Source of the DNA: Desulfatiglans sp. | Lineage (GTDB): Bacteria; Desulfobacterota; DSM-4660; Desulfatiglandales; HGW-15 | DNA: 64,000 nt | Assembly (NCBI GenBank): GCA_012513605.1 | Contig: JAAZBV010000156.1 | Coordinates: 91,270 to 155,269, forward strand | Reading direction: 5' to 3' | Shown here: positions 31,780-62,566 of the stretch, piece after piece | How positions within the stretch are numbered: the first letter of the stretch is position 1 | Layout of the letters: every line of letters begins with the position of its first letter | Notes under the pieces: generated by a model | Told to the model about the DNA's origin: nothing | The model's input: only the letters and a program-made list of their open reading frames with translations | Databases searched by the model: none | Position numbers and translations under genes: made by a program

Positions 31780-31847
31780 TTTTTGATCTCCTTATTCTCA
31801 ATAAAAAAGCTTCATCCATAAAAACAACTTTCTGGATGTATGCTATT

Positions 31848-46763: not shown

Positions 46764-48650
46764 TCACTCACCATATAATACCTGGGCACGAAAATCCCTG
46801 CCTATAGCCTGTCCAAGGTCTCGCATGAGCGGGTACCCTTCAGGCGGACAGAGCCCCCTGGGGGTTTTAACAGAAAGCCTTCGTTCCACCTTGATTGCCT
46901 GCCCATCCTGTTTGTAGGTTGCAGTATAACTGCCATACTGATTCTGTACTGAAACATCCTTTGGCAGCTGCATAACCTTTATCTTTTCCGGTAATGCCAC
47001 TGTTGTAATCTCAACCTTTCCATACCCGCTATGGTAGCTTGGATATTTCATTTCCGGCTGATTGGTCCCAAATGAAAGGACAACAGCTGGAGATGGATTG
47101 GGGATACCGGCAGGTATCATAAATGCACCAGGGCCTGGAATAGTCATCACATTCTGAAGTGTATATGAGGTTTCAACCTTCATTTTATCAGTAAGTTTAC
47201 GCGGATCACTGCCAGTTATTGTCCCTTCACCCTGCTGCCCGGACCTTGTCAGAAAGGCATTTGCGGCCATTGCCTCCTGGCCTGGAGGTATTGAGGCCTT
47301 GTAGCTGCGCAGGACATATTCCATCCCACCATTTGCAGTAACCACTGATTGCCCTTTTGCTGTGCCGTCATCATTTATCGTAATGGTAGTGATGGTTTCC
47401 ATATTTGATATTTCAGGAGAGGGCTCCGGAAGCATCTTTATCCCCGCACCCTTTTCAAGCCCGCGTGTAACCAGGGCATACTTGCTGTATTCATTTGTCG
47501 GCAGTATACCAAAAGGAGCAATTTCTGCGGTAGGATCGATAAACAAATCAAAATCTGGCAGATAGGTGATTACATGGTTATAGACTCCAAGGGGCAGTGC
47601 CACGTCCGGCTGCCAGTACACATCCCCGGAATTAATAAGCACCGGCGCTGATTTTATACCTTTGGCAGAAAGTAATGCATTTAGCAGAACAACCTTGTCT
47701 TTACAGTCACCATACTGGGTCTCTATAATGGCATCGGCATCACGCGGTACAATACCCCCTACCTCAAAACTGAGGGCCACGTACCTGATATTCCCTGTTA
47801 CCCATTGGTACAGAGCGGCTGCCTGATCACGAGGGCTAACTATACCGCCTGTGATCTTGTCTGCAAGTTTTTGGACCTCATCTGTTACCTTTTCCTTGTC
47901 TGCTGCACGCTTGAGATATGCCTCGGCGACCTGATTAAAGTCAGCAAAGGATGTCACTGCCAGACGCGGGCAGTAGTTTGTCTCACTGATAGCTCCCGAC
48001 TCAGGGGTTTTGGCTTTCTGGTCTTTTACTGTCCAGACATATTTGGATTTACCTGGTATATCTGACTGAACCTGTCCACCTGCAACATCAATGGCCTGGA
48101 TATACATTTTCATTGTTTCAGGTGCAACCAGTGTTATTTTAATTGAATCTATATCAACGCTCATAGGGAAGGTTTCAAACATTGAGAAATGGTTTTCAAA
48201 CAGAGGCTTTATCTGTTTGTGTAAGAAATGATACCCCTTGCTTGCGCCCACAGATATCTGCGGAAACACAATCGCCTTCACCTTGATATCACCAAATGCA
48301 GGGGCTGATGTGCTGATTGGACTCTGCTGTGTGATTATCATATCAGCCGGAACAGGTATCTTTTCTCCCTGAGCTGTTAAGGTGTAGGCATCAAGCACTT
48401 CAAGGGACTGAAGGCTCTCACTGTAAGCAAGATATGACTGCGCCTGTGACTGGACTGCCTGATCAATATTAATCCGGATTTCACTGATTATATCCATGGT
48501 ATATGTACCGTCTGCATTTACCTCATAAGTCACATCCATTTTGCTAATCGTGAGTGGTGATTTGTATTCCGGGGCCGCCATCTGTGCGGTTACTGTTCCG
48601 GTCGTGATAAGAATGAAAAATACAACTGATAAAAATGAACCAAGTCTCAT
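46764..48650 (-). CDS. secreted transglutaminase-like protein with DUF3857-like N-terminal domain
   Basis: 628 aa with a signal peptide and transglutaminase core QYGDCKDKVVLLNALL. Confidence 0.7.
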   Translation of the reverse strand: MRLGSFLSVVFFILITTGTVTAQMAAPEYKSPLTISKMDVTYEVNADGTYTMDIISEIRINIDQAVQSQAQSYLAYSESLQSLEVLDAYTLTAQGEKIPVPADMIITQQSPISTSAPAFGDIKVKAIVFPQISVGASKGYHFLHKQIKPLFENHFSMFETFPMSVDIDSIKITLVAPETMKMYIQAIDVAGGQVQSDIPGKSKYVWTVKDQKAKTPESGAISETNYCPRLAVTSFADFNQVAEAYLKRAADKEKVTDEVQKLADKITGGIVSPRDQAAALYQWVTGNIRYVALSFEVGGIVPRDADAIIETQYGDCKDKVVLLNALLSAKGIKSAPVLINSGDVYWQPDVALPLGVYNHVITYLPDFDLFIDPTAEIAPFGILPTNEYSKYALVTRGLEKGAGIKMLPEPSPEISNMETITTITINDDGTAKGQSVVTANGGMEYVLRSYKASIPPGQEAMAANAFLTRSGQQGEGTITGSDPRKLTDKMKVETSYTLQNVMTIPGPGAFMIPAGIPNPSPAVVLSFGTNQPEMKYPSYHSGYGKVEITTVALPEKIKVMQLPKDVSVQNQYGSYTATYKQDGQAIKVERRLSVKTPRGLCPPEGYPLMRDLGQAIGRDFRAQVLYGE

Positions 48651-48689: not shown

Positions 48690-48986
48690 TTATTTATCAA
48701 AATCCGGCACTATAAATTCCAATGATTTTTCACAAAATTCCTTCCATTTGGGTGTTATATCATCAAAAATAATATTTTGTTCTTTGTATATATCATCTGT
48801 TACAACATAGTTTTCCTGGAGATAAACAATCGATTCATCTGTGAGTACCCTTATTTCCTCAACCTCTATTCCATCAATTTCCTTTTTTTCTTTACGAGTA
48901 TTCTGTGTATTTTCCTTCCAGCTACGATATTTTCTCATGTCTCTCAAATGGTATGCCTTGCAATATTTTCCCATAACTTTAATCAT
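48690..48986 (-). CDS. hypothetical protein
   Basis: 98 aa with GAAGGAGAA upstream. No family recognised. Confidence 0.5.
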   Translation of the reverse strand: MIKVMGKYCKAYHLRDMRKYRSWKENTQNTRKEKKEIDGIEVEEIRVLTDESIVYLQENYVVTDDIYKEQNIIFDDITPKWKEFCEKSLEFIVPDFDK

Positions 48987-49068
48987 ATTGTTTTCTCCTT
49001 CAAAAATATATGAACAGAATTAATTTAATTCTGTTCATAATTATCCAAACAGTTCTAAGAGTATAAAA

Positions 49069-50523
49069 TTACTGGACTTCAAATTGTTTTGAACTGTTGA
49101 TTGTCATAGTTACACCACCAAAAGGATTTATTTCAATGACTCCTGTCACACTAACATTTTTTCCATTATAAAGATCAGGTGGAAACTGATCCTTTATTGT
49201 ATCTTGAATAGCAAGAGGAAATGCTCCGGGAGTTTCCGGGGGTTTCCCGATGGAAATAGTTGTTACCTCAAAATCAGGATATTCTTTTACTCCTTCTACT
49301 TTACCAAAAACAGTAGCCTGCCTTCCAATATAATTTTCAGCCTCTGAATAATATATTTTAACCAGTTCATCAGGATTGCCAGTCTCCATATTCTTCTGAA
49401 TATTTTGCTTTGAATAATTAGTTTGAGGTGTAACAGATATTTCCGATGTTTTAATTTCGGCCTTATTCAGTGTTTTTTTTGCACAGATTTGTGTTAAAGA
49501 GGTTCCAAAACCATCATATCGATTTACTGAATAATGCATCAATCCCTCTTTATCCTGAAAGTCTTTCAGCTCATCAAGCGTCCAGGTCCCGGATGTACTT
49601 GTGATACTCCAACATAAATCCATCAATACACTCGACAGATCATCAGCAGATGGAGCAGATGGTTTTATATACTCTTGAATTACATAATATCCATTTTGCT
49701 TTAAAGCTTTTGCTATTTTTTTAGAAACCAAATGATTCTCTTCTGACTTGAAATGGTGCAATAGACTTGAAACAAATATAAGATCATATTTATTCTCTCC
49801 AAAATCATCTACTAAAGCATTTCCAGCTTGGAATTTTATACGATCTTCCATATTATGCTTCTTTAATATTGATTTTGTAAATTCTTCAACTTGAGGAAGG
49901 TCAACTATCGTTGCTTTTAGAGTCGGGTATCTTTTGCATAGTTCAATAGAATAGAGTCCATGAGAACCTCCAATATCAAGCATTTCAGAAGGGTTTTCAG
50001 GAATTGGTGTAATTTTTGGGCAAATGTTGGATGTATATATTGCATGATTTTCCATAGCAATTTGATAATTACTCCATTCTTCATCAGACATTGTGTTGTG
50101 TAAATCAATTCCTTGACCTGTACGCAAATATTCTTTTAAATGAGCCATATTATTGCCCATAATTTCATAAAATCTGGCAAACTTATAATAACTAAACGGG
50201 CTATCTTTTAAGCACCATACTCTTGCCATCTTGGTTAATGAATATTTATCGTTTTCAATTTTAAAATAATCTAAAACAGCTAAAATAACCATAATTCTTT
50301 TCAATGCATCAATATTTAATCCTGTTTTTTCAGCGATTTGATCAATTGTAACCGGAGAGTCTTTTGCAGCTTCGAATATGTCTAATTGTAAAGAATTTAA
50401 TACAACTTTACTGAATATATTAAATGTATATCCATGTATTGATGGAAAATTTATTAAGTTACTTTTAAAAGCCAATTGTTCTGATTCATTTTCTGCAGTC
50501 ACATATTTCATAATCCTCTCCAT
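49069..50523 (-). CDS. O-methyltransferase (family 2, winged-helix dimerisation N-domain) with C-terminal OB-fold-like extension
   Basis: 484 aa with SAM motif LDIGGSHGLYS. The extra ~130 aa tail (ATVFGKVEGV...YNGKNVSVTGVIEINPFGG) resembles OB-type barrels. Confidence 0.75.
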   Translation of the reverse strand: MERIMKYVTAENESEQLAFKSNLINFPSIHGYTFNIFSKVVLNSLQLDIFEAAKDSPVTIDQIAEKTGLNIDALKRIMVILAVLDYFKIENDKYSLTKMARVWCLKDSPFSYYKFARFYEIMGNNMAHLKEYLRTGQGIDLHNTMSDEEWSNYQIAMENHAIYTSNICPKITPIPENPSEMLDIGGSHGLYSIELCKRYPTLKATIVDLPQVEEFTKSILKKHNMEDRIKFQAGNALVDDFGENKYDLIFVSSLLHHFKSEENHLVSKKIAKALKQNGYYVIQEYIKPSAPSADDLSSVLMDLCWSITSTSGTWTLDELKDFQDKEGLMHYSVNRYDGFGTSLTQICAKKTLNKAEIKTSEISVTPQTNYSKQNIQKNMETGNPDELVKIYYSEAENYIGRQATVFGKVEGVKEYPDFEVTTISIGKPPETPGAFPLAIQDTIKDQFPPDLYNGKNVSVTGVIEINPFGGVTMTINSSKQFEVQ

Positions 50524-50543
50524 ATTTTATTATTAATTAAAGA

Positions 50544-51314
50544 TTAACTGATTGGGGCAGCCAGATTTACGGTAAGCAATTCCTTATTTATAAGCTCAAT
50601 AACCTGAGCTTGATGAGTATTAATAAACAAATGTTTTCCTGTAATCATTTTTAAACAAAAGCCTTGGTTGGTATGTCTGTTCCATGCTTCAGCATCCTCT
50701 CTGCTTGCACGCTTGTCAAATTCACCATATAATACAGTCATACCGCTACTTAATGGTTCCTCATCAATATATTCCATTGTATTGAGCATCTCTATATCTG
50801 CCCGAAGAATTGGTAGAACTATTTCCAGTATTTCTTTATTCTGGAGCACTTCTTCCGCCATACCTCCAAGCTTAATCAATTTATCAATAAATTCTTTATC
50901 TTCCATCTTGTAGTGAAGGGCATCATGGATTGGCTCTGTTAGATGAGGCGCCCGCGCTCCTGAAATAAACATATGAATTGGACAGGGGAGATCATATTTA
51001 CGTAAATGACGAGTAAGATAAAAACTTATATGAGCCCCCAGGCTGTGTCCAAAAAAAATAAATGTTTTATCCAAAAATGGAAGAATAGCTGGCGCAAGGT
51101 CTTCAACCAGCTTCGGAATCCTTCTATAAGGAGGTTCATTGAACCTGATCTCACGGCCAGGCATCTTAATAATGCAAACTTCAATATCGTTTGAAATGCT
51201 ATGAGGCCAGTTTAAAAAAACAGAAGCCCCTCCGCCTGCATAAGAAAAACAAAACATACGTATTTTAGCATCCGGTTGTTTTTTCGGGCAGGTTATCCAC
51301 TTAGTACTGTACAA
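50544..51314 (-). CDS. type II thioesterase (alpha/beta hydrolase)
   Basis: 256 aa. FCFSYAGGGASVF plus GxSxG as FGHSLGAHISF is the typical NRPS/PKS editing-thioesterase layout. Confidence 0.85.
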   Translation of the reverse strand: MYSTKWITCPKKQPDAKIRMFCFSYAGGGASVFLNWPHSISNDIEVCIIKMPGREIRFNEPPYRRIPKLVEDLAPAILPFLDKTFIFFGHSLGAHISFYLTRHLRKYDLPCPIHMFISGARAPHLTEPIHDALHYKMEDKEFIDKLIKLGGMAEEVLQNKEILEIVLPILRADIEMLNTMEYIDEEPLSSGMTVLYGEFDKRASREDAEAWNRHTNQGFCLKMITGKHLFINTHQAQVIELINKELLTVNLAAPIS

Positions 51315-51342
51315 ATATCAACTCCTCTTAATAGTTAAAATA

Positions 51343-52974
51343 TCAACCAGTAACAAATTGCTCATCAAATAAAGCTTTTCCATTCAATGCTGCGGCTAAA
51401 AGTGTTTTTGTATATGGTTCCTTCGGTTTTTCAAAAATCTGTTTTACAGGACCTTGTTCCACAACCTCACCCTGGCACATTACCAGTACATAGTGGCTCA
51501 ATGCTCGTATAACTTTCAAATCATGACTTATGAACATGTAGGCAATCCTATATTTTCTCTGGATATCCCTAAAAAGTTCTATCATTTGCGCCTGAACCAG
51601 ACTGTCCAGGGATGATGTCGGTTCATCAAAGACTATAAATTTTGGTTTAAGCACCAATGCCCGCGCAATTGCTATCCTTTGTCTTTGCCCTCCTGAAAAT
51701 TCATGGGGTAACCTGTCCAGCATATCTTTCTCAAGTCCAACTTCAATCAATGTTTTAACTATTAATTCATTCCTTTCCTGGGTTTGCATGTGAGGTTGAT
51801 GCACCCTTAAACCTTCATCTATAATATTTCTAACTGTCATTCTTGGGTTAAATGCACCATATGGGTCCTGAAATACAATCTGGATTTTACTTCTCAATCG
51901 CCTCATATTCTCTTCTTTTAACAGATGTATCTCTTTCCCCATAAAAACCGCTTTGCCTTCAAATCGTTCCAATCGCAGGATAGCCATACCAAGTGATGTT
52001 TTTCCGGAACCTGATTCTCCGACGACTCCCAATGTCTGACCTTCAAATATTACAGAGGACACATCTTTTACCGCTTGGATACAGTTGACTGTTCTTTTCA
52101 TTAAACCTTTTTTAATGGGGTATTTTACCGATATATTATCGAACCTGACCATTTCCAGTGCCTTGGGATCAAGAGCTGTCGGTTCTCCTTTGGGGACAGC
52201 ATCAATTAATTGTTTTGTATATATGTGCCAGGGTTTTAAAAATATTTTTTCGATTGTGCCCTCTTCAACAATTTCACCATATCTCATCACTGCGACCCTG
52301 TCCGCTATCTTCTCAACAATACTTAAGTTATGCGTGATAAGTAAAATTGCCATCTGTGTGCGGATTTGAATCTCTTTAAGAAGTTCAAGAATCTGCGTCT
52401 GAATTGTGACATCAAGAGATGTAGTCGGCTCATCAGCAATCAACAGATCAGGACTATTAGCCAGTGCCATGGCAATCATAACACGTTGACGTTCTCCTCC
52501 TGAAAGGTTATGTGGATAAGCATTCAGCCTAGATTCACCTTCCGGAAATCCTGCTATATTTAACAATTCAATTATCCTGGTTCTTTTTTCTTTTTTGGAT
52601 AATGGGTGATGTTGAGTGATCATTTCACCTATTTGTTTTTGAACGGTATGCAATGGGTTCAGTGAGACCATTGGTTCCTGAAAAATCATTGAGATGCGTT
52701 TACCCCTGATACCGCGTAATATTGTTTCAGGTTGTTTGAGTAGCTCCATGCCATCGAAGGCTATAGAACCTTCCAGCTTAACAACATTACCAGGTAGCAG
52801 TTGAGGTATAGACAATCCTGTTACAGTCTTACCAGAACCAGATTCTCCTACCAGGGCAAGAATTTCTCCTTTATGGATGCTCAGGTTTGCTTCTTTAACC
52901 GCCTCTACAATACCATTGCCGGATGAGAAAGAGACTGTCAGTTTTTTAATAGTTAATAGTTGTGATGATGTCAT
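51343..52974 (-). CDS. ABC transporter ATP-binding protein, duplicated ATPase (YejF-like)
   Basis: 543 aa with two Walker A motifs (GESGSGKT twice) and two signature motifs (LSGGERQR, FSGGQRQR). Confidence 0.9.
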   Translation of the reverse strand: MTSSQLLTIKKLTVSFSSGNGIVEAVKEANLSIHKGEILALVGESGSGKTVTGLSIPQLLPGNVVKLEGSIAFDGMELLKQPETILRGIRGKRISMIFQEPMVSLNPLHTVQKQIGEMITQHHPLSKKEKRTRIIELLNIAGFPEGESRLNAYPHNLSGGERQRVMIAMALANSPDLLIADEPTTSLDVTIQTQILELLKEIQIRTQMAILLITHNLSIVEKIADRVAVMRYGEIVEEGTIEKIFLKPWHIYTKQLIDAVPKGEPTALDPKALEMVRFDNISVKYPIKKGLMKRTVNCIQAVKDVSSVIFEGQTLGVVGESGSGKTSLGMAILRLERFEGKAVFMGKEIHLLKEENMRRLRSKIQIVFQDPYGAFNPRMTVRNIIDEGLRVHQPHMQTQERNELIVKTLIEVGLEKDMLDRLPHEFSGGQRQRIAIARALVLKPKFIVFDEPTSSLDSLVQAQMIELFRDIQRKYRIAYMFISHDLKVIRALSHYVLVMCQGEVVEQGPVKQIFEKPKEPYTKTLLAAALNGKALFDEQFVTG

Positions 52975-54008
52975 ATCTTTTTAGGGTCAAATGCGTCTCT
53001 GAATGCTTCACCAATGAATATGATCAGGACAAGAGTTATTGAAACGGAAAAAAAGCCCACAATACCAAGCCATGGCGCCTGTATATTTGCTCTCCCCTGG
53101 GATAATAGTTCGCCAAGAGATGCAGATCCTGCTGGCAGACCGAAACCAAGAAAATCCAGGATTATCAACATTGTGACTGCACCGCTGAAAGTAAAGGGAA
53201 TAAAGGTCATTGCTGCAACCATTGCGTTTGGCAATACATGCTTTAAAAGGATATTATATCTTTTTACTCCCAGTGCCCGCGCCGACTTAATAAAATCAAA
53301 ATTTCTTATCCTGAGTACCTCTGCCCTTACCACATTTGATAATCCTGCCCATGAAAAAACCAGCAGTACACATATCAGTATCCAGAATCCCGGATTAATA
53401 ATGCTAAAGATGACGATTAACAGAAAAAACAATGGCAGCCCGTTCCATATCTCTAATAAACGCTGAAAAATAAGATCTACCAGCCCCCCCAAATAGCCCT
53501 GAACAGCCCCGGTTATTATTCCTATAATGGATGAAAAAATCGTTAATATTAAAGAGAAAATTATTGTTGTTCTGAAGCCATAAATCAAACGGGCAAATAC
53601 ATCCCTGGCCTGATTGTCTGTGCCCAGAGGGTTTTCAATGGATGGCGGTGATGGAACAGGCATTCCTGGTATTTTATTAATAGTTCTGTAGCCATATTTG
53701 AAAGGCGGCCAGATCATCCACCCATTGGAAATTATCTCTTCAATAATAAAGGGGTCCCTGTAATTCGTTTTAGCAAGAAAACCACCAAATACCGATTCAG
53801 GATAATCAACAAATACAGGGAAATATATTTGTTTTTTATATCTCACAATCAGAGGCTTATCATTTGAAATAAATTCTGCAGGCAGTGTGAAAATTAGAAG
53901 AAACAGGAATATCAACAGACTATAATAGCCACGTTTGTTTGCCTTGAACTTTTTCAGGCGTCTCCGGTTTACATCTGATGATTTTAATCTTAAAAAATTA
54001 TAGGACAT
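52971..54008 (-). CDS. ABC peptide-type permease (YejE-like)
   Basis: 345 aa, multi-TM, oligopeptide-permease-like. ATGA overlap with the ATPase gene. Confidence 0.85.
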   Translation of the reverse strand: MSYNFLRLKSSDVNRRRLKKFKANKRGYYSLLIFLFLLIFTLPAEFISNDKPLIVRYKKQIYFPVFVDYPESVFGGFLAKTNYRDPFIIEEIISNGWMIWPPFKYGYRTINKIPGMPVPSPPSIENPLGTDNQARDVFARLIYGFRTTIIFSLILTIFSSIIGIITGAVQGYLGGLVDLIFQRLLEIWNGLPLFFLLIVIFSIINPGFWILICVLLVFSWAGLSNVVRAEVLRIRNFDFIKSARALGVKRYNILLKHVLPNAMVAAMTFIPFTFSGAVTMLIILDFLGFGLPAGSASLGELLSQGRANIQAPWLGIVGFFSVSITLVLIIFIGEAFRDAFDPKKI

Positions 54009-54043
54009 TGTAACCTTTTGAGTGTAAGTTCCTGTAATCAGAT

Positions 54044-54153
54044 AAAGTCGCTAAGAAAAACAAAAATTATTATTTGATAAAAATAAAAAGCTTTTCTCCG
54101 TGAACTCTGCCTGTCCCGCCATAGCTTTAGCGGAGGCGGATGTTCTCCGTGGT
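54044..54153 (-). repeat. ~110-bp dispersed repeat, copy B1
   Basis: aaagtcgctaagaaaaac...ttttctccgtgaactctgcctgtcccgccatagctttagcggaggcggatgttctccgtggt is near-identical to 59160-59297 and 61650-61782. Confidence 0.85.
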
Positions 54154-54156
54154 AAA

Positions 54157-55254
54157 TCATACGCCTCTGCTTTCAAAATCTATTCTGGGGTCAATCACTG
54201 TGTACAAAATATCACTGACCAGCTTCATCAATAATCCCATAAGTGTATATATGTAAAGAGTGGCGAAAATAATCGGATAATCTCTCTCCAATACTGCCTG
54301 AAAACCCATCAATCCTAAACCATCCAGAGAGAAGATAACCTCAATCAGCATAGAACCTGTAAATATGGCAGTGATAAATGCCATAGGAAAGCTGGATATC
54401 ACGATCAACATGGCATTTCTGAAAACATGCTTATATAAAACCCCATTTTCGGTCAGTCCCTTTGAACGTGCTGTTACCACATATAATTTATGAATTTCAT
54501 CCATAAAGAAGTTTTTGGTAAGCATTGTCATGGTGGCAAAACCCGGAAGCGTAATACATATAACTGGTAATGTGATATGCCATATATAGTCAAGTATTTT
54601 AGCAGTACTGCTCAACTCATCCCAGTTATTTGAAATAAGTCCCCTTACAGGAAATATATGGAAATATGAACCTCCTGCAAAAAACACAATTAGTAATACA
54701 GCCAGAATAAATCCCGGTATAGCATAAAACACATTCACCATAAAACTTGACCAGGCATCAAATGGGGTGCCATCCTTAACTGCCTTACGAATCCCAAGGG
54801 GAATGGAGATCAAATACATAATGAAGGTGCTCCAGAGCCCAAGACTTAAGGATACTGGCAGTTTTTCTTTAATGATATTAAGAACAGTCTCGTTACGGTA
54901 ATAACTCTTGCCAAAATCAAAACAAAGATAATCCCATACCATATTTATAAATCGTTCATGGGCTGGTTTATCAAACCCGAACTGTATTTCCAGTTCTTTA
55001 ATAATGGCAGGGTTCAGGGCTTCTGATCCTCTGTAAACCCCTTTTGCGCCCCCGGATTGAACCGCGGTCTTGTTTCCATCTGCACTTTTACCGGATGTTC
55101 TCATTATTGGATCAGATGCCCCGAACGAGTATTTTGCTATTATTCGCTCCACCGGGCCACCGGGTGCAAACTGAATAATGAAAAAATTTATTACCAGTAT
55201 ACCAAACAGGGTCGGTATTATGAGTAATAACCTGCGTATAATGTAGGAAGTCAT
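54157..55254 (-). CDS. ABC peptide-type permease (YejB-like)
   Basis: 365 aa, multi-TM, with the DppB/OppB-like N-terminus YIIRRLLLIIPTLFGI. Confidence 0.85.
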   Translation of the reverse strand: MTSYIIRRLLLIIPTLFGILVINFFIIQFAPGGPVERIIAKYSFGASDPIMRTSGKSADGNKTAVQSGGAKGVYRGSEALNPAIIKELEIQFGFDKPAHERFINMVWDYLCFDFGKSYYRNETVLNIIKEKLPVSLSLGLWSTFIMYLISIPLGIRKAVKDGTPFDAWSSFMVNVFYAIPGFILAVLLIVFFAGGSYFHIFPVRGLISNNWDELSSTAKILDYIWHITLPVICITLPGFATMTMLTKNFFMDEIHKLYVVTARSKGLTENGVLYKHVFRNAMLIVISSFPMAFITAIFTGSMLIEVIFSLDGLGLMGFQAVLERDYPIIFATLYIYTLMGLLMKLVSDILYTVIDPRIDFESRGV

Positions 55255-55264
55255 TATGGATTCC

Positions 55265-55310
55265 TGATACTGGATACTGGATACTGGATGCTGGATACTG
55301 GATGCTGGAT
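55265..55310. repeat. tandem heptamer repeat (TGGATAC/TGGATGC, about 6.5 units)
   Basis: tgatac tggatac tggatac tggatgc tggatac tggatgc tggat lies in the 75-bp gap between the SBP and permease genes. Confidence 0.9.
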
Positions 55311-55329
55311 TAAGTATGATTAGAAACAG

Positions 55330-57168
55330 CTATTTTAATCCTCTATACTTTTTCACCGCCGCATCCTTTACAGGATCAACCCACCATGTATCGGAAGGGG
55401 AATATGCCTCCCATTTGGGCTGAGTTTCAGGTATCCCGAACCTGTCCCAATAGGCCATTAGTTGTTTATTCCAGAAATACATGTTTATTGAGTAATAATT
55501 CCATAAAAGCACTCTGTCCAGTGCCCTGCATGCGGCTACTTTATCGTCTCTGGTCTTTGCATTTACTACTTGTTCAATAAGATCATCAACAATGGAATTT
55601 TTAATATACTGCGAGTTTGAACTCGCATTGGCATCTGCTGTCTTTGATCCCCAGTTCTGCTTTAGTTCCGCCCCTGGAGAAAGAGAATGAGGATAAAGAC
55701 CATTTGATATCATATCCCAGTCATAACTGAAGTTTCTTGGCCAGAAGGTTGTGGAATCAACAATGTCCAGTCTGGCATCAATACCTAATAACTTCAGGTT
55801 TTCGACAAATGGTGCGAATAAGGGTTCATCGGATGGATCCTGCAACATAAAATCTATCATAAATGGTTTCCCATCTCTTACCAGTTTACCTTCTATATTT
55901 TCCCAGCCAGCCTCCTTAAGTAGTTTCGAGGCCTTACGTAAATTATTACGAAGACCTTCCTGTGTACCCTGAGTGCTGGGGGGTACAAATTCCTGAGTAA
56001 AAACCCTTGGGTCTAATTTATCACGATATGGTTCAAGTAACGCGAGTTCTTTGCCTTCAGGAACACCTCTGTGTGCCAGCTCTGTGTTGGCAAAATAGCT
56101 TGTATTACGCTCATACATACCATGAAATATATTCTTGTTTGTCCATTCCCAGTCAAAGGCATAAGCAAGAGCCTCTCTTGTTTTTTGGTCTTTAAACTGC
56201 GGCCTTCGGCCATTCATACCTATAGCAAAAAACCAGACAGGACCATTTAATTTATCTTCCCTCTTTTTGATAAAACTTTTTTTTACCGCATCATTGTTAT
56301 ATCCTTTTTTCCATTGCGCCGGTTTAAATTCATTACGTATATCAATGTTACCTCCCATAAAGGCCTCATAAGCAACATTGGTATCACGATAAACATCCAT
56401 ACGAACAAAATCAAAATTATTCCGGCCTGCATTTACAGGAAGATCCTTCCCCCAATAGTTTTCATCCCTTTTCATTATAAGGGTATTACCAACATCGACT
56501 TTATAAAAGACATATGGAGTACTTTGAACATTCATCTCGATGGTCGGTTGGGAAAAATCTCTATTTATCCAGTAATGTTTCGGGATTACAGGCAATCTTG
56601 TTGCTATCTTATATACATTATTACGATCACCCGGTTTGAGAAATATAAATTTAACAGTATCCTTTCCAGTCTTTTCAACTTTTTCTATGTCAGCTACCAG
56701 ACTTTTATATGTTGGAGATGCCTTGTCTCGCATTGTCTCATAGGAATAAATTACATCTTCAACAGTTATTGGTTTTCCATCGTTCCATCGGGCAATATCT
56801 CTGATTTTAAATTCTGCCCATTTGTAATCTTCAGGATATGTGACTGTTTCAGCAATCAGTCCATATGCTGAATTCGGTTCATCAGCATTCGTAACCATTA
56901 AGTTTTCAAAAACGCTGAAAGTTGCAAAACCTGGTGATGTCCCAAGCGCTATATAAGAGTTGATATTATCAAAATTACCCATATCCCAAACAATGGTTCC
57001 GCCTTTTGGCGCTTTTGGATTCACATAATTAAAATGTTTAAAATCCTTCCCATACATCAGATCACCATATAGTGTTATCCCATGAGAGGTAGTAATATCC
57101 TTTGCAAGTAAGACACCGGATGTAAAAAATACCAATAGTAAAACGATAAATATAATTTTTCGCAACAT
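55330..57168 (-). CDS. extracellular solute-binding protein, family 5 (YejA-like)
   Basis: 612 aa with a signal peptide. Size and layout match peptide/nickel SBPs encoded next to Dpp/Yej-type permeases. Confidence 0.8.
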   Translation of the reverse strand: MLRKIIFIVLLLVFFTSGVLLAKDITTSHGITLYGDLMYGKDFKHFNYVNPKAPKGGTIVWDMGNFDNINSYIALGTSPGFATFSVFENLMVTNADEPNSAYGLIAETVTYPEDYKWAEFKIRDIARWNDGKPITVEDVIYSYETMRDKASPTYKSLVADIEKVEKTGKDTVKFIFLKPGDRNNVYKIATRLPVIPKHYWINRDFSQPTIEMNVQSTPYVFYKVDVGNTLIMKRDENYWGKDLPVNAGRNNFDFVRMDVYRDTNVAYEAFMGGNIDIRNEFKPAQWKKGYNNDAVKKSFIKKREDKLNGPVWFFAIGMNGRRPQFKDQKTREALAYAFDWEWTNKNIFHGMYERNTSYFANTELAHRGVPEGKELALLEPYRDKLDPRVFTQEFVPPSTQGTQEGLRNNLRKASKLLKEAGWENIEGKLVRDGKPFMIDFMLQDPSDEPLFAPFVENLKLLGIDARLDIVDSTTFWPRNFSYDWDMISNGLYPHSLSPGAELKQNWGSKTADANASSNSQYIKNSIVDDLIEQVVNAKTRDDKVAACRALDRVLLWNYYSINMYFWNKQLMAYWDRFGIPETQPKWEAYSPSDTWWVDPVKDAAVKKYRGLK

Positions 57169-57239
57169 AGTAATATCCCCTTTCTATTAAATATTTTCAG
57201 CCAAGTTTTTTTGAATTATTTACTGGGCATCAATCTATT

Positions 57240-58781
57240 TCACAATGTGTTTTCCTTAATAATACTTCTATGGGGTTTCATCTTCAGTTCGGACAATCTT
57301 ATATCCGGTTTTTTCAAAACTTGAGAAATAAGGATCACATAGTCATTTGTCAGGTTAACAATAGTTGATCTGTTATAAAAAGTTTTGTTGAATGTAAAAG
57401 ATCCATTTATAGTATCTGCGGCCTCCGACAACATCACCTCAAATGGAAATATCGCGAATGGAGGCTGCTCAACCTTGATAGGAATAAACATCATGGGTGG
57501 AGGCATGGTCCTGGATGTTGTCGATTTTTCCTCTGTCTTCGATACTTGTTGAGAAGGCTTTTCTTCAGAAGTGCGCTCAGGTGCCTTAGCGCCTCCTTCC
57601 CAGAATGTCTGAAGTTGAAAATTGACCACAGGACCTTGAGGTGGAATAGTCTTAGAAACGTGGAGGAATGGAACAAAATTATCATATACCTTTAACAGTG
57701 TATTTTTTGTTCTCTCGATAACTTCTATAAAAGTGGGATCTCCTGATAGATCAATGTGAAAGAACTGCCAGGTCATAAAGCATCCTATCAGCGGTTCTGT
57801 TTCCTTTTGATTACGGTTTGCAACAATAAAGCTGAAAAAATTATATTTATTACCGCTGAAAATATAAACCATTGCCATAAATGCGGCATATAGAACTGTA
57901 AACATAGTAGTGTTATTTTCATTACACAATACTTTGAGTCTTTTGACTATTTCAGGCAGAATAATTATAGGGACAGTATCCCCGTCATAGCTGAAGCTTT
58001 CAATGGCATGGTCAAAAGGTAAAAAAGTATTTATTTTATCGGTTAACTGTTTCCAATAGCCAAGTTTTTCTTCAAGAAAATCTCCTGAATATCTTTCCTG
58101 TTCCCATATTGCATAATCGCCATACTGTAATGCCAATTCAGGAAGAGGGATAGATATGTTTAAAGCGTATGCATGATATAATGTTAATAATTCTGATTGT
58201 AGTATACCCATAGATATTCCATCTGTGGCGATATGGTGAGTAAAGATATATAGGGCATGTTCATCTTTGGCTGTTATCAGTGTAAATGTAATCATTAATG
58301 GATCCTTGAAAAATGAAAATGATTCAGATGCCCTCTTGTCTGCAACCCGTTTAAGTTCATCCTTTTTTTCATCTTCAGATAATTCGTTCAGATCAATTAC
58401 TTTAAGGATATTGGCAGGGACTTCGTTTATTTTCTGATATGGCTTATTATCTACTGCCTCATAATTTGTGCGCAGTATTTCGTGGCGTTTAACTACCTCC
58501 TGTATGGCCCTGTGAAAGGCAGAAATATTTACCCTACCTTTAATCAAATAACCTAATGCAGGGCCGGAAGATCTGATTTCTTCAGGGTCGTAATATTTAT
58601 TGATAACAGGCAGTAATGTACCTTCCTGTATGCATGAAACGGGTATCAACCCTTTTCTGTCACGCGGAGTTATTCGATCTTTATTTTTTGACTCTCTCTC
58701 TTTCTGAAATTTTAAAAACATCTCTTTTTTTGCTGCAATGGAAGATGATGCTGTATTTTCAAGCATTTTTGACTCCTTCAT
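57240..58781 (-). CDS. free-standing NRPS condensation-domain protein
   Basis: 513 aa with catalytic HHIATDG (58218-58238), plus C-domain context LIPVSCIQEG, QYGDYAIWEQ and YWKQ. Confidence 0.85.
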   Translation of the reverse strand: MKESKMLENTASSSIAAKKEMFLKFQKERESKNKDRITPRDRKGLIPVSCIQEGTLLPVINKYYDPEEIRSSGPALGYLIKGRVNISAFHRAIQEVVKRHEILRTNYEAVDNKPYQKINEVPANILKVIDLNELSEDEKKDELKRVADKRASESFSFFKDPLMITFTLITAKDEHALYIFTHHIATDGISMGILQSELLTLYHAYALNISIPLPELALQYGDYAIWEQERYSGDFLEEKLGYWKQLTDKINTFLPFDHAIESFSYDGDTVPIIILPEIVKRLKVLCNENNTTMFTVLYAAFMAMVYIFSGNKYNFFSFIVANRNQKETEPLIGCFMTWQFFHIDLSGDPTFIEVIERTKNTLLKVYDNFVPFLHVSKTIPPQGPVVNFQLQTFWEGGAKAPERTSEEKPSQQVSKTEEKSTTSRTMPPPMMFIPIKVEQPPFAIFPFEVMLSEAADTINGSFTFNKTFYNRSTIVNLTNDYVILISQVLKKPDIRLSELKMKPHRSIIKENTL

Positions 58782-58825
58782 TTAAAATATTTTCACCACG
58801 GAGAGCACAGAGAACACGGAGGGGT

Positions 58826-59128
58826 TTATGATACATATCTCTTTATTCCTTCTTTAAGCCTCGGTACATAGAGATCTCTCTTTTGTCCACAATCAAGTTT
58901 TATACCCTTATATGCTACGTGTAACCCATGCTGTAGTTTGAAGTTAATAACTTTCGGTTTCAACTTATAGGTCAGACATTGTTCATATGCAGATTCAAAC
59001 AAGCCGGGGTCTAAAATCCTGTGAACTCCAATCGTTGTCTGTATCATCGGATCTGTAATTTTACGTATTTCACTCCGCTTGTCCCGCCATAGCTTCAGCG
59101 AAGGCGGATGTTCTCCGTGAACTTTCAT
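58826..59128 (-). pseudogene. internally deleted GxxExxY-family (PD-(D/E)XK-like) remnant
   Basis: IGVHRILDPGLFESAYEQCLTYKL...VAYKGIKLDCG retains the GxxExxY signature. The central part is missing and it jumps to ...LKEGIKRYV. Its N-terminus is encoded by the dispersed repeat (HGEHPPSLKLWRDK). Confidence 0.6.
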
Positions 59129-59129
59129 T

Positions 59130-59297
59130 GTTAAAGTGACAGAAAATTAAACCGCAAAGTCGCAAAGGTCGCTAAGAAAAACAAACAATATTATTCATTA
59201 ATAAAATATAAAGGATTTTCTCCGTGCTCTCTGCCTGTCCCGCCATAGCTTTATTAGATGTCGAAAGCCTTAGCGACGGCGGATGTCCTCCGTGGTA
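59130..59297 (-). repeat. dispersed repeat, copy B2 (with an extra insert)
   Basis: gttaaagtgacag...gtcgctaagaaaaac...ttctccgtgctctctgcctgtcccgccatagcttt...gcgacggcggatgtcctccgtggt. Confidence 0.8.
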
Positions 59298-59349
59298 ATT
59301 AATTATGCAGTTAAACACATGAACCCTAGAACCCTCGAACCCTTCTTCG

Positions 59350-59709
59350 CTAAATCACCCCTTCCTCCATCTCTCCACCCAGCACCTCATTGTATGTATC
59401 TTCAATCTTCTTAGCTAGGGCTTTAACAGTCTGAAGTTCAAATATGGTCCTGATGGGTAATTCCATTCCAAACACTTCAAAAATAAGGTTAATAATGCGA
59501 CTTGCCTGTAATGAATTTCCTCCCATCTCAAAAAAATTATCATTACGGCCAATATGCTCTATCTTAAGTACACCAGACCAGATTCGTGCAAGCTCTTCTT
59601 CTATCTCACCTATAGGAGCCTCATAAGGAGTCGGCCCCTTTAACACCATAGAGTCAAAGATCGTATTGTTATTTTCATTGATGTCAGTTTCCATATCCAC
59701 CCCCAGCAT
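59350..59709 (-). CDS. peptidyl/acyl carrier protein
   Basis: 119 aa with phosphopantetheine attachment motif FFEMGGNSLQA. The start may be ATG 59694 (METDIN...). Confidence 0.85.
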   Translation of the reverse strand: MLGVDMETDINENNNTIFDSMVLKGPTPYEAPIGEIEEELARIWSGVLKIEHIGRNDNFFEMGGNSLQASRIINLIFEVFGMELPIRTIFELQTVKALAKKIEDTYNEVLGGEMEEGVI

Positions 59710-59747
59710 CCATAATCTAGTATCTAGAATCCAGCATCCAGTATCTA
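59703..59747. repeat. degenerate tandem heptamer repeat, inverted relative to 55265-55310
   Basis: gcatcca taatcta gtatcta gaatcca gcatcca gtatcta spans the junction between the C-domain gene stop and the carrier-protein start. Confidence 0.75.
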
Positions 59748-61271
59748 GACAAACTCCCCCAACCTTTTACCCGGTTCTTTAATTGCCTCAACCACTACTT
59801 CCTTAAAAATATCCAGAAACTTGTTAATAGTCTCTTCATCATAAACATCTGTCCTGTATACCATTGAACCTTCTATAACAGTTTCTCTGTCAATGAATTC
59901 CATGGCACAGGAAACAGGAAAGCCATGACACCCATGTCGTACACCTGGTGGCTCAATCTTTATACTGCGTGGTCTGAAATCATCCTGTTTTTCATCAGAA
60001 CTGCCAGTCAATATACTTATTCCAGGTGCATTAAATGAGATACCATCATCGGCTAAGGCCTTGCGTACCCAGTCGAGTGGAACTGGTTGATGAGAATGGG
60101 CTTCATTCATTGTATTTGTAACACGCTCGGAGATCTCTGCAAAACTTGGATTTCCTGTAAGGCTTGTTTGATAGGCAACCTCCATGGCAAAATTACCAAT
60201 AATATTTTGAAAATCAGTGTTTAACCTCCCGGCCTGAAGCGCAACAACAACCACCTCTTCCTGCCCGGTCATGCGCCAAATTGCCATGTTGTATGCAGAG
60301 AGCAAAACACAAAACAAGGTCTTCTTTAAACTGGAAGCCAATTGCTTTAGACCACTGGTTATATCAGTCTCAATAACAATGGTTTTTTCTGCACTTTCTT
60401 CTGTAGTTGATCTTTTAATAGATTGGTTTCCATTAGAAAGAAGGCCGGTAAAAGGAGCAGACTTAATAGTGTCCTTCCAAAAATTGATGTGCCTGATGCC
60501 TGCAGGGCTTTTTGCCCATTCCTCTATGGATGCAAGATAGTCCATGTACTGGAATCGGACAGGGAGTATTCGGGGCGGGGTGCTTGATAAAACTGAATTA
60601 TATACAATCATAAGTTCCTGAAAAAATATGCCAATAGATATAGCATCTCCAATGGCATGATGAAGACCAACGCTTAATATGTAATCTGTAAAAGATATCC
60701 TTATTAAAAAAACACGATATAATGGTCCTTTATCCAGATCGTATTCCTGCCAGACAAGTTCATTAGCAATACGTATTGCTTCATTTTCACGCTCTTCGAG
60801 AGACTCTCCTTTAATAACAATTTCTTGAAAGGCAGGTTCCTGTTTAGGTTTATTAACCAGGTAAAGATTGCCATCTAAAATCTCAACAGAACTATTAAGC
60901 ACTTTATGGCGACCAAGAATGTAGTTAATGCTTTTTATAAGAGAATCGGCATAAATTTCCCCTTTTTGCCGTATTACACTGTGGGTAGCATTAGCGCTGC
61001 TTAACTCAATCACACGGTTGGGATAATCCTTCCATAAGAACCTGTTAAATAATACGCCGCGATCTTTTGAAGTTGATAAAACCTGAAAAGGCCTATTGGC
61101 TTTTTCAACACTCTTCAAATATCGCAAGATGTCAGACTTTTTTTCTTTTATAGATAAAAGGATATCCTGCGTCATAGCGCCTTTCTGCGCTCGATAACTT
61201 AACTCTCTATCTTTGAGATACAAGTGTATGCCTTTCCCAAGGCAGTATTCAAGAAATGATTCTATTGTCAT
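59745..61271 (-). CDS. free-standing condensation-domain protein with TubC-type N-terminal docking domain
   Basis: 508 aa. The first ~55 aa (FLEYCLGKGIHLYLKDRELSYRAQKGAMTQDILLSIKEKKSDILRYL) fit the TubC_N docking pattern. The catalytic motif is HHAIGDA, a variant of HHxxxDG. Confidence 0.8.
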   Translation of the reverse strand: MTIESFLEYCLGKGIHLYLKDRELSYRAQKGAMTQDILLSIKEKKSDILRYLKSVEKANRPFQVLSTSKDRGVLFNRFLWKDYPNRVIELSSANATHSVIRQKGEIYADSLIKSINYILGRHKVLNSSVEILDGNLYLVNKPKQEPAFQEIVIKGESLEERENEAIRIANELVWQEYDLDKGPLYRVFLIRISFTDYILSVGLHHAIGDAISIGIFFQELMIVYNSVLSSTPPRILPVRFQYMDYLASIEEWAKSPAGIRHINFWKDTIKSAPFTGLLSNGNQSIKRSTTEESAEKTIVIETDITSGLKQLASSLKKTLFCVLLSAYNMAIWRMTGQEEVVVVALQAGRLNTDFQNIIGNFAMEVAYQTSLTGNPSFAEISERVTNTMNEAHSHQPVPLDWVRKALADDGISFNAPGISILTGSSDEKQDDFRPRSIKIEPPGVRHGCHGFPVSCAMEFIDRETVIEGSMVYRTDVYDEETINKFLDIFKEVVVEAIKEPGKRLGEFV

Positions 61272-61417
61272 TCAAACGTACTCTTATAATTGTTTTGATT
61301 TTTTAAGGTTATCTGTTATGTAAAGCTTGCGTTGCAATATATCCAGTTAAGAATTACATCAAACATAGTTATAGCAAAATAAAAACAACCAACAATATGC
61401 AATCTTTCACTTCCGTG

Positions 61418-61532
61418 TTTTTATTTTCGTGCTTTTCGTGTGGTTCGCGGTTAGAAATATGTTTTTGGTTTTTCAGTAACGGATGACAAACATTATTATA
61501 ATCAACCACGGAGAACACGGAGGGCACGGAGA
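61418..61532. repeat. short dispersed repeats (ttttcgtgtggttcgcggttagaa type plus ccacggagaacacggag type)
   Basis: The cgcggttagaa core recurs at 61868-61897 and 62812-62842. The ccacggag core recurs at 15017 and 58794. Confidence 0.75.
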
Positions 61533-61578: not shown

Positions 61579-61782
61579 GGTTAAAGTGACAGGTTAAAAT
61601 TGAACCGCCCCTGTGAAATAACGGCAAAACATGTTTCACAGGGTAAACAAAGGCGCAAAGGGCGCTAAGAAAAACAATAATTAATATTTGCCTTTCGATT
61701 GATAAAAAAATAAAAAGTTTTTCTCCGTGAACTCTGCCTGTCCCGCCATAGCTTTAGCGGAGGCGGATGCTCTCTGTGGTGA
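61579..61782 (-). repeat. dispersed repeat, copy B3 (long form)
   Basis: ggttaaagtgacag...ggcgctaagaaaaac...ttctccgtgaactctgcctgtcccgccatagctttagcggaggcggatgctctctgtggt. Confidence 0.85.
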
Positions 61783-61901
61783 GAATACTGTATTCAAAAT
61801 ATAATCAGGTTCGCCTCGTAAAAGCACAAATTGATTGCAATGCACTTTTTCATTGCCCTGTTTTTATTTTCGCGCTTTTCGCGTGGTTCGCGGTTAGAAT
61901 G

Positions 61902-62201
61902 CTATATCTGAATTCCATTTTTTAATATTTCTTTTAAAAATCCGCTTTCATCATGATTTTTATCCAGAATAACAGGTTCAATTCTGTCGTCAATTTCCCT
62001 TCTTAGTTTCCATAATAAAGGTCTGGTTGAAAAATAATCTCCTTCAATTTTATCAACAATAACTGCAACGTCTATATCGCTGTCTTCTCTATTATTACCT
62101 GTTGCATAGGATCCAAACAAAACCATCTGATCAAACATCATGTTTTTTGAAAGGAGTTTTTTATATTTTTTAAGTTTTTTTATAACCTCTGTTTTATCCA
62201 T
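61902..62201 (-). CDS. minimal nucleotidyltransferase (MNT) domain protein
   Basis: GSYATGNNREDSDIDV is the GSxxxGx...DxD motif. The likely start is MDKTEVIKK at 62201; the track ORF extends to 62240. Confidence 0.8.
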   Translation of the reverse strand: MDKTEVIKKLKKYKKLLSKNMMFDQMVLFGSYATGNNREDSDIDVAVIVDKIEGDYFSTRPLLWKLRREIDDRIEPVILDKNHDESGFLKEILKNGIQI

Positions 62202-62566
62202 ATCTGAAGTTCCCTGGTGTCCTTTAAAATCTCTATGCATTTTTCATCGGTTAATGTTTTCAGTAATTCTTCTTTATGAACTGGATACCTGCATTCAATA
62301 TTCATTGGTTCGAGCAGGTCTATGAAATCCTGTTGTTTTTCTGATAAAAGCTCATAAAGTTCTGCTTTTTTAGCAATATATGAGAGACTGTGCGAGTATG
62401 GAGGTGTATCAGCGTGTATCTTAACAAAATAGCTTTTGAGTATTTTTTCGATTGCCTGATGAGCCATGAATCCGACATAAAGATATCTTTTGCTTTTCAG
62501 CATTGCTTCCGCTGTTTCCAGGTCATACTCTGACAATTCTTTCCAATAATTTACTTGGCTTGACAT
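62180..62566 (-). CDS. HEPN domain protein
   Basis: 128 aa. Has a four-helix HEPN pattern with AHQAIEKILK and the ECRYP motif. Its 3' end overlaps the MNT gene start. Confidence 0.75.
   Translation of the reverse strand: MSSQVNYWKELSEYDLETAEAMLKSKRYLYVGFMAHQAIEKILKSYFVKIHADTPPYSHSLSYIAKKAELYELLSEKQQDFIDLLEPMNIECRYPVHKEELLKTLTDEKCIEILKDTRELQIWIKQRL

Follow-up and report, generated by a model that had tools for sequence, protein, structure and literature searches.

A double-glycine-leader peptide gene, stand-alone condensation enzymes and a Yej-type importer in one gene cluster of Desulfatiglans sp.

What would a bacterium do with non-ribosomal peptide synthetase (NRPS) condensation enzymes and a carrier protein that have no visible loader and are grouped with a transporter built to bring peptides in? 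The question is raised by positions 49069-61271 of a 64,000-nucleotide stretch of Desulfatiglans sp. (GenBank assembly GCA_012513605.1, contig JAAZBV010000156.1, positions 91,270 to 155,269 of the forward strand), hereafter the window, which an earlier note had described as an adenylation-less NRPS-like gene set wrapped around a YejABEF-type peptide importer. With moderate confidence, I read this interval as the downstream part of a cluster, some 23 kb long and two-thirds visible in the window, that joins a microcin-like peptide to NRPS parts, in which condensation (C) enzymes would acylate a ribosomal peptide and the importer would re-import it. The individual parts are of known kinds; the combination of a double-glycine (GG)-leader peptide, stand-alone NRPS parts and a Yej-type importer has not been characterised before.

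ORF calling fills the interval with ten open reading frames (ORFs), all on the minus strand, so that the co-directionality described in the earlier note stands but its count of eleven does not. Domains were assigned with Pfam and NCBIfam profiles and motifs were read from the translations. The profiles agree with the note's naming of the genes (docking-domain C protein, carrier protein, GxxExxY remnant, second C protein, binding protein, permeases, double ATPase, thioesterase and methyltransferase), which in cluster order are:

59745-61271, minus strand: C1, a stand-alone condensation enzyme with an N-terminal beta-hairpin docking domain (TubC_N 48.5 bits, Condensation 180.8 bits)
59350-59709, minus strand: PCPb, a stand-alone peptidyl carrier protein (PCP) of 119 amino acids (aa) with an acidic C-terminal tail ending GGEMEEGVI (PP-binding PF00550 55.1 bits, GGNSL)
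58826-59128, minus strand: truncated GxxExxY / PD-(D/E)XK gene (PDDEXK_3), an insertion remnant (profile positions 2-67 of 117)
57240-58781, minus strand: C2, a second stand-alone condensation enzyme (Condensation 203.4 bits, HHIATDG)
55330-57168, minus strand: YejA-type periplasmic peptide-binding protein (substrate-binding protein, SBP; SBP_bac_5, signal peptide, PDB matches to YejA and MbnE)
54157-55254, minus strand: YejB-type permease (NF011712, 530 bits against a cutoff of 445)
52971-54008, minus strand: YejE-type permease (NF011596, 418.6 bits, slightly below the cutoff of 439)
51343-52974, minus strand: YejF-type fused double ATPase (NF011713, 679 bits against a cutoff of 834; two ABC_tran domains)
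50544-51314, minus strand: type II thioesterase (TE), 256 aa (PF00975 137.4 bits, GHSLG)
49069-50523, minus strand: O-methyltransferase (OMT; Dimerisation and Methyltransf_2, with a C-terminal tail of about 110-150 aa after the methyltransferase domain)

Both C enzymes score above the gathering threshold of the NRPS condensation family (PF00668) and carry its catalytic motif, read as HHAIGD in C1, where A stands for the final G of HHxxxDG, and as HHIATDG in C2. PCPb has the GGxS phosphopantetheine site of its family, and the thioesterase is a stand-alone alpha/beta hydrolase of the expected size (about 250 aa) with a GxSxG motif. The window has no amino-acid-activating adenylation domain, and thus no complete NRPS module (condensation, adenylation and thiolation, C-A-T). 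Pfam scans of the 30 largest other window ORFs found no AMP-binding domain and returned no ketosynthase domain, tblastn of the window with the cluster's own ligase (see below) gave a best E-value of 1.3, and no phosphopantetheinyl transferase was found in the window. The statement that adenylation, ketosynthase and ligase domains are absent from the window is thereby confirmed; its other large ORFs look like housekeeping genes (RF3, Tex, a TonB receptor, a histidine kinase, aldehyde:ferredoxin oxidoreductase, ribonucleotide reductase and others).

A candidate loader for this locus appears just past the window end, on an 11.2 kb metagenome contig, L054 (JGI 3300038675), whose positions 8626-11166 are 100% identical to window 64000-61460 over 2541 nucleotides (nt) and which runs 8.6 kb beyond position 64000. 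It was recovered via the 193-aa ORF at the window edge, a look-up with C1 having given only contigs of 8.6 kb and 2 kb that end about 20 nt past the window. L054 itself breaks at a repeat (window about 61397-61456), and the junction is spanned, at 99.96-100% identity, by L057 and L056, which are assemblies of independent read sets. Going upstream from 64000, the order on the cluster strand is precursor, beta-lactamase-fold protein, antitoxin fragment, PCPa, PhdYeFM/PIN pair, ligase, C39 exporter and HlyD-like protein. The features that matter here are:

63937-64000, minus strand: 3' end of the precursor gene, its last 20 codons and stop (translation PNVSIEQYHQWVDVAEMYGF, then stop), identical to the C-terminus of the L054 precursor
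L054 8354-8689, cluster strand: GG-leader precursor, 111 aa, with leader MKGKKMRELAYNELEEVSGG (ending ELEEVSGG) and a core that begins NPLAW
L054 6463-7839, cluster strand, about 0.8-2.2 kb past the window end: Cys-variant beta-lactamase-fold protein, 458 aa
L054, cluster strand: PCPa, 109 aa, ending AQELESGVI
L054, cluster strand: AMP-binding enzyme (ligase), 551 aa, with PCPa as its own PCP, 4.2-5.8 kb past 64000, its stop about 4.2 kb past
L054, cluster strand: Peptidase_C39, ABC_membrane and ABC_tran exporter, 713 aa
L054, cluster strand: HlyD-like protein, C-terminal part only

The codons of the precursor end occupy window positions 63937-63999 (C-terminus AEMYGF), and apart from this truncated edge copy no GG-leader ORF was found in the window by regular expression or tblastn. 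On L054 the precursor adjoins a C39-peptidase ABC exporter and a membrane fusion protein (MFP), as expected of a class II microcin or other GG-leader locus. The ligase belongs to the fatty-acid / 4-coumarate CoA-ligase (4CL/FadD) branch rather than to the amino-acid adenylation domains (NCBIfam, PDB), and it and PCPa are separated from C1 by only toxin-antitoxin insertions and small genes. Since the ligase lies just past the window end, the adenylation-less character of this locus is a window-edge effect. The earlier note had allowed for an adenylation-domain NRPS immediately beyond the window, and the AMP-binding enzyme with PCPa is essentially that, except that it is an acid ligase. By the same token, its suggestion of loading in trans from a distant adenylation domain came close, with an acid ligase in place of an amino-acid domain; for the aminoacyl-tRNA variant no evidence was found. 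For genome scans the lesson is to consult the adjoining sequence before a domain's absence near a window edge is called unusual.

In the beta-lactamase-fold protein, which has homologues at L031 3939-5312 and L028 8165-9541, C-I-S-K replaces the S-x-x-K nucleophile motif of the AmpC/EstB type ('fqlgCisklmta' aligned with 'fqvgSitktft' of 7spn and 'ygigSitksfta' of 2qmi). Lacking a signal peptide, the protein is a cytoplasmic Cys-nucleophile variant, and it may be a transacylase. A prodrug logic like that of ClbP, which is among the beta-lactamase-fold matches, was considered in view of the Asn after the GG site and set aside, as only about 10 of 32 peptides have that Asn and the enzyme lacks a signal peptide. 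The proposed full order of the cluster is therefore HlyD-like protein, C39 exporter, ligase, PCPa, beta-lactamase-fold enzyme, precursor, HExxH protein, C1, PCPb, C2, YejABEF-type importer, TE and OMT.

How might the carriers be connected to the condensation enzymes? The TubC_N match of C1 (PF18563) is well above its cutoff of 26 bits, and an AlphaFold2 model (pLDDT 87) has an N-terminal alpha-beta-beta-alpha-alpha unit (helix 3-12, strands 15-20 and 23-28, helices 35-43 and 45-58) followed by a two-lobed C domain. The best fold matches of the model are C domains. By sequence and by fold C1 matches the docking-C structure of enacyloxin (6cgo) over its full length, and also EpoB (5t7z). The solved chains closest to the C domains are elongation C domains of Txo1/Txo2 and TycC, those of Txo1/Txo2 being closest to C2, and the X, Cy and E types score lower. 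Beta-hairpin docking domains bind a short, charged C-terminal motif (SLiM) of the upstream carrier protein (PMC9113145). Both PCPs here have acidic C-terminal tails, and the tail motif [ML]-[ED]-E-G-[VI]-[IV] occurs at 12 of 13 loci whose C1 has the docking domain as against one of five whose C1 lacks it, a count that is suggestive only, the loci being phylogenetically non-independent. This co-occurrence suggests that the PCPs may act as donors to C1 through the tail/docking pair. A docking site shared by the leader (EEMDQV) and the PCP tail (EEMDEGV) was also entertained; the spacing differs, and the idea is speculation only. An exhaustive profile search based on an alignment of C1 told little: giant multi-C NRPSs took most of the ranking by their summed scores, and only two C1-family representatives reached the top 150.

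About 48 stand-alone homologues of C1 (43-89% identity) were found in metagenome-assembled genomes (MAGs) of Desulfatiglans and other Desulfatiglandales, in an Acidobacteriota MAG and on 22 metagenome contigs, and they demonstrate a recurrent linkage of C1-PCP-C2 with GG-leader peptides and a Yej-type transporter across phyla. The upstream set recurs, in varying order, in L031 (C1 81% identical), L029 (89%), L028 (47%) and L041 (48%), with exporter and HlyD-like genes seen only in L054 and L028. L031 reads ligase, toxin-antitoxin insertion, PCPa, beta-lactamase-fold protein, GG-peptide, small transmembrane (TM) protein, Peptidase_Mx1, transposase, C1, PCPb and C2. L029 has the beta-lactamase-fold protein, Mx1 and two GG-peptides, then a transposase, two toxin-antitoxin pairs and a group II intron, then C1, PCPb, C2, Yej genes, TE and OMT. 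L028 runs HlyD, C39-ABC, GG-peptide, rhomboid, ligase, PCP, beta-lactamase-fold protein, C1 and C2.

A second layout, type I, is that of the Acidobacteriota and metagenome loci (C1 about 52%): C1, one to three GG-peptides, a CPBP/Rce1-like protease or small TM protein, PCP, C2, SBP-YejB-YejE-YejF and a short-chain dehydrogenase/reductase (SDR). The GG-leader gene directly follows C1 in 20 of the 21 type I contigs with enough sequence, and SBP-YejBEF directly follows C2 in all seven in which that region is visible. The link of the importer to the C-PCP-C genes is real, and the earlier note's own counter-suggestion, that the yej-like operon is an unrelated neighbour, is not borne out. A comparison of the window with type I gives 56-71% identity for the transporter proteins, 52% for C1 and 45-47% for C2; this better conservation of the transporter between phyla suggests that the cassette moves and is kept as a unit.

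A leader of the form MRELTxEEMxxV(A/S)GG is common to the roughly 30 distinct precursors, whose cores are hypervariable, and in relatives the precursor is followed by small TM proteins or CPBP proteases. Of 22 distinct type I cores (precursors next to C1 in L011, L026, L027 and L033-L052), 20 end in Ser, many of them in GS. The 10 kb upstream of C1 in L027 are unrelated housekeeping genes and L026 and L035 likewise have no ligase upstream of C1, which indicates that type I cassettes lack a local ligase and that the C-PCP-C core can apparently work without one. An ABC match upstream of C1 in L035 and L037 proved to be a system of the MacB/LolE type and no peptidase exporter.

Within the Desulfatiglandales the segment after C2 is variable: the Yej genes, TE and OMT in the window, L029 and L006; a methyltransferase, a sulfotransferase and TE in L003; a methyltransferase, SBP, a sulfotransferase and YejBE in L004; and nothing in L031 and L009. 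Such variable sulfotransferase and methyltransferase genes fit with peptide tailoring. C2 is itself mosaic, L031 being only 58% identical to the window in C2 (L031 12694-14208) but 81% in C1 and 92% in PCPb; the break lies between PCP and C2, and the transporter, TE and OMT are absent there. To judge from these identities, C2 appears to have been exchanged together with the variable genes downstream of it.

What would such a cluster make? The ligase would load a carboxylic acid, aryl or fatty, onto a carrier protein, and C1 would receive the acidic PCP tails on its beta-hairpin domain, in the manner of the enacyloxin pair Bamb_5917/5915. One or more tethered acyl groups would then pass, by way of C1 and C2, to a nucleophile on the ribosomal peptide; alternatively the two enzymes would make a small cap that is joined to it. 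The OMT would tailor the product and the type II thioesterase would edit the carriers. The peptidase-exporter would cut off the leader and secrete the product, and the binding-protein importer would take the peptide back, most likely for protection of the producer's membrane, otherwise for recycling or signal uptake.

The importer consists of a secreted SBP with a clear Sec signal peptide (MLRKIIFIVLLLVFFTSGVLLA, followed by KD), two BPD_transp_1 permeases and a fused double ATPase, which is the YejABEF architecture and bears out the earlier call of an importer. YejB exceeds its NCBIfam cutoff, whereas YejE (418.6 against 439) and YejF (679 against 834) fall below their equivalog cutoffs. The top PDB matches of the SBP are YejA structures (E about 1e-110 to 1e-115) and MbnE (5icq, E 2e-99); by weak NCBIfam matches its family also includes nickel and opine-metallophore binders. 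The earlier note's premise that NRPS clusters normally carry exporters is too strong, as importers with a binding protein are also part of siderophore clusters and methanobactin operons. Microcin C and phazolicin are taken up by YejABEF, and internalisation protects cells from membrane-attacking peptides; MbnE, a YejA-family SBP mentioned together with YejA, is encoded in methanobactin operons, whose product is a peptide that is synthesised ribosomally and then modified post-translationally (a RiPP) (PMC10128002). Because YejABEF takes in membrane-attacking peptides and the GG-leader precursor cores are hydrophobic, Gly/Ala-rich or aromatic-rich, self-protection of the producer or re-uptake is probably the most economical role for the importer.

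Several points weigh against this interpretation. What links the C enzymes to the peptide is co-localisation, the chemistry being deduced from gene content, and among solved structures the closest, at about 21% identity, are elongation C domains of the ordinary kind. The sole ligase is paired with its own PCPa and not with the PCPb of the window, and no ligase lies within 10 kb of the distant type I cassettes. The transporter is missing from L031, L003 and L009, all three close relatives, and is therefore accessory in the Desulfatiglandales clade. Finally, known lipidations of ribosomal peptides use GNAT acyltransferases and not C domains (2023 preprint).

Could the cluster be two independent neighbours, a class II microcin-like export locus beside a small NRPS-like pathway that makes an acyl-amide or ester, with the importer supplying an amine or peptide nucleophile or re-importing a small product such as a metallophore? 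C domains that join a carrier-bound acyl group to a free small nucleophile are known, enacyloxin Bamb_5915 (6cgo) being among the best matches here; type II thioesterases, OMTs, sulfotransferases and SDRs are typical of small-molecule tailoring, and the weakly matched metallophore binders of the SBP family would suit such a product. However, precursor genes are interleaved with C1 and PCP in two phyla, which counts against an independent small-molecule pathway: the GG-leader gene sits between C1 and PCP in 20 of 21 distant contigs with no exporter nearby, and in L028 the peptide, ligase, PCP, beta-lactamase-fold protein, C1 and C2 form one tight co-directional block. PCPa, on the microcin side, also bears the same docking tail as PCPb, and I regard the two-pathway explanation as unlikely, if still a serious candidate. 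A different arrangement of the same parts is that the C-PCP-C set modifies or detoxifies peptides that Yej has imported, whether foreign antimicrobial peptides or the cell's own peptide after leader removal. Leader cleavage in peptidase-exporters is coupled to export, so that a free core N-terminus exists only afterwards; the transporter always follows C2 in the distant clade, which has no local exporter or ligase; and YejABEF internalises diverse peptides. Against this, three close relatives keep C1-PCP-C2 without the transporter, no acyl donor was identified in the distant clade, and a route of export followed by re-import is circuitous. Modification after import thus seems to me improbable in general, and possible especially for type I cassettes. 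The earlier note had likewise proposed action on an imported peptide; action on a peptide as such gains support, though the peptide in question has a GG leader and is encoded by the cluster itself, out of the note's sight.

The absence of a ligase within 10 kb of type I cassettes, together with the pairing of the window cluster's single ligase with PCPa instead of PCPb, might also suggest that the carrier is loaded without any adenylating enzyme, from aminoacyl-tRNA, acyl-CoA or acyl carrier protein-bound acyl groups, by a C enzyme or a phosphopantetheinyl transferase. I consider this very doubtful, as there is no positive evidence for it, a ligase may lie elsewhere in type I genomes, and no tRNA-dependent enzyme family is among the Pfam matches listed for the cluster and the relatives examined. 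Scarcely credible is the last of the earlier proposals, a decaying fragment of a larger NRPS cluster, to which the many selfish insertions (toxin-antitoxin pairs, the GxxExxY remnant, repeats) might seem to point. The genes are full length, the ratios of non-synonymous to synonymous substitution rates (Ka/Ks) against L029 and L006 are 0.06-0.20 for C1, PCP, C2, the four transporter genes and TE, and another phylum still has the core at 45-52% identity. With purifying selection, as the low Ka/Ks shows, and intact catalytic motifs (HHAIGD, HHIATDG, GGNSL, GHSLG), decay is rejected. Overall, then, the earlier interpretation is partly supported, and acylation of a cluster-encoded ribosomal peptide by C enzymes, with re-import of the product, remains the reading that I prefer.

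How does such a cluster compare with known systems? The enacyloxin pair Bamb_5917/Bamb_5915 (6cgo) is the closest counterpart of C1 and its carriers, a stand-alone docking-domain C enzyme with a stand-alone PCP that has a C-terminal tail and no adenylation domain in the pair. It differs in sequence (about 21% identity) and setting, as the present cluster has two C enzymes, two PCPs and no polyketide synthase feeding the carrier, and adds a GG-leader peptide, a peptidase-exporter and an importer. With class II microcins such as microcin V the cluster shares the leader MRELxxxELxxVSGG and a C39-peptidase ABC exporter and MFP adjoining the precursor, but here ligase, PCP and C enzymes would decorate the peptide, a decoration that no microcin is known to have, and the window's peptide ends in Phe and is only putatively antibacterial. 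No immunity gene was identified at this locus. In class IIb microcins (E492, H47, M) a non-ribosomal moiety is attached at a C-terminal Ser, of which the terminal Ser of type I cores is reminiscent; the window's own precursor is not of this class, since it ends in Phe and no MceC/D/I/J-type genes are among the Pfam matches listed for L054 and the window. The Rax system of Xanthomonas (RaxX/RaxST/RaxA/RaxB) makes a sulfated GG-leader peptide by cytoplasmic tailoring and secretes it through a peptidase ABC exporter and MFP. It resembles the present loci in pairing a GG-leader peptide with a peptidase-exporter, and relatives L003 and L004 have a sulfotransferase after C2, but a sulfotransferase is missing from the window, and NRPS parts and an importer from Rax.

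The importer has its own counterparts. E. coli and Sinorhizobium YejABEF have the same four-component architecture and a related binding protein (E about 1e-110 to YejA), whereas here the transporter is embedded in a biosynthetic cluster and co-inherited with it, and YejE and YejF fall below equivalog cutoffs. MbnE likewise is a YejA-family binding protein inside a ribosomal-peptide operon; methanobactin operons differ in that no MbnB/C-type genes are among the Pfam matches listed here, and MbnE operons are not known to have YejBEF permease and ATPase genes beside mbnE. Lipolanthines, goadvionins, selidamides and lipoavitides likewise unite a ribosomal precursor with an acyl group that comes from carrier-protein or fatty-acid machinery, but the joining is by GNAT enzymes and class-defining RiPP enzymes are present, whereas the candidates here are C domains and the Cys-variant beta-lactamase-fold protein. 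Hybrids of RiPP and non-RiPP pathways are few, and the acylation ones are GNAT-dependent (2023 preprint). Full-text searches, confined to an open-access library, found no description of condensation domains combined with GG-leader, microcin or RiPP precursors.

A bolder proposal, which I put forward only tentatively, is that in the C1 family we have the first NRPS condensation enzymes whose dedicated task is the tailoring of ribosomal peptides. These enzymes would transfer acyl groups from docked PCPs to GG-leader peptides, with the C-terminal Ser as the candidate site in type I; the Yej importer would return the secreted product or clear it from the periplasm, and type I would operate without any dedicated adenylating enzyme. 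Hybrids of ribosomal peptides with other biosynthetic machinery being rare and the known acylations GNAT-based, C enzymes and carriers wired to microcin-like precursors would, if confirmed, provide a new chemistry for the joining and a compact set of tools for lipidating peptides. The cassette is conserved and horizontally mobile, with about 50 loci among Desulfatiglandales, Acidobacteriota and metagenomes from gut or sediment. It would also offer a definite example of a peptide-antibiotic cluster that has a binding-protein importer as an integral part, in which self-protection by internalisation becomes testable. The interesting question is what feeds the C-PCP-C core of cassettes that lack a ligase.

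The minus-strand flanks of the interval contain further features:

63755-63785, minus strand: long hairpin and T-run separating the precursor gene from the gene that follows, possibly an attenuator (14-bp stem, weak evidence)
63131-63712, minus strand: 193-aa membrane-anchored protein, putative metallopeptidase or immunity factor (HEAFH, of the form HExxH; C-terminal DLNGDGKVD)
61902-62566, minus strand: HEPN / nucleotidyltransferase (NTase) toxin-antitoxin pair, an insertion within the cluster (PF05168 and PF01909 on identical L001 genes)
49009-49039, minus strand: hairpin and T-run 3' of the OMT stop, a possible operon end (14-bp stem, weak evidence)
48690-48986, minus strand: 98-aa conserved protein (74-96% identity in L007, L008 and L009, immediately 3' of C2 or TE)
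46764-48650, minus strand: DUF3857 / transglutaminase-like protein, a syntenic neighbour (Pfam; syntenic in L003 and L031)

The 193-aa protein has an N-terminal membrane anchor and a dockerin/EF-hand-like DLNGDGKVD, lies between the precursor and the HEPN/NTase pair, the position of Peptidase_Mx1 in relatives, and has no match in Pfam or NCBIfam. The 98-aa protein, which always stands after the last cluster gene in Desulfatiglandales relatives, likewise has no Pfam or NCBIfam family match. The C-terminal extension of the OMT (about 110-150 aa) has no family match either and by eye looks beta-rich and OB-like. A scan for promoters and terminators did not rise above shuffled expectation (57 against 62.6 and 13 against 12.7), the two long hairpins at gene ends (63755-63785 and 49009-49039) being its sole noteworthy items.

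Selfish and accessory insertions are dense in the cluster and its relatives (window 61902-62566 and 58826-59128; L054 4537-5153 and 6061-6291; L029 5147-9661; L031 1949-2565 and 8265-9338) and include HEPN/NTase, PhdYeFM/PIN and HigB genes, antitoxin fragments, GxxExxY and 23S-rRNA-IVP genes, a group II intron and transposases of the Y1 and DDE types. Among relatives the same gene junctions are often occupied, but by different elements. The GxxExxY gene is shorter or absent in relatives, and repeat copies flank the window copy (58826-59128). Short intergenic repeats of two families, about 120 nt (54034-54153, 59047-59121, 59155-59277, 61648-61780) and about 60 nt (61397-61456, 61840-61899, 62783-62842), lie among other places in the YejB-YejE gap and on both flanks of the GxxExxY remnant, and metagenome contigs break at one copy.

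Elsewhere in the window, positions 22001-30000 have a GC content of 0.48-0.51 against 0.35-0.43 in the remainder and may be an acquired island. This block encodes squalene-hopene-cyclase-like and prenyltransferase-like proteins, a DUF116-polyprenyl synthetase fusion, a radical SAM protein and aldehyde:ferredoxin oxidoreductase. A 159-nt direct repeat, 92% identical, flanks the gene at 32121-33065 (31843-32001 and 33058-33216), and a 48-nt repeat, 88% identical, flanks the Tex gene (39988-40035 and 42482-42529).

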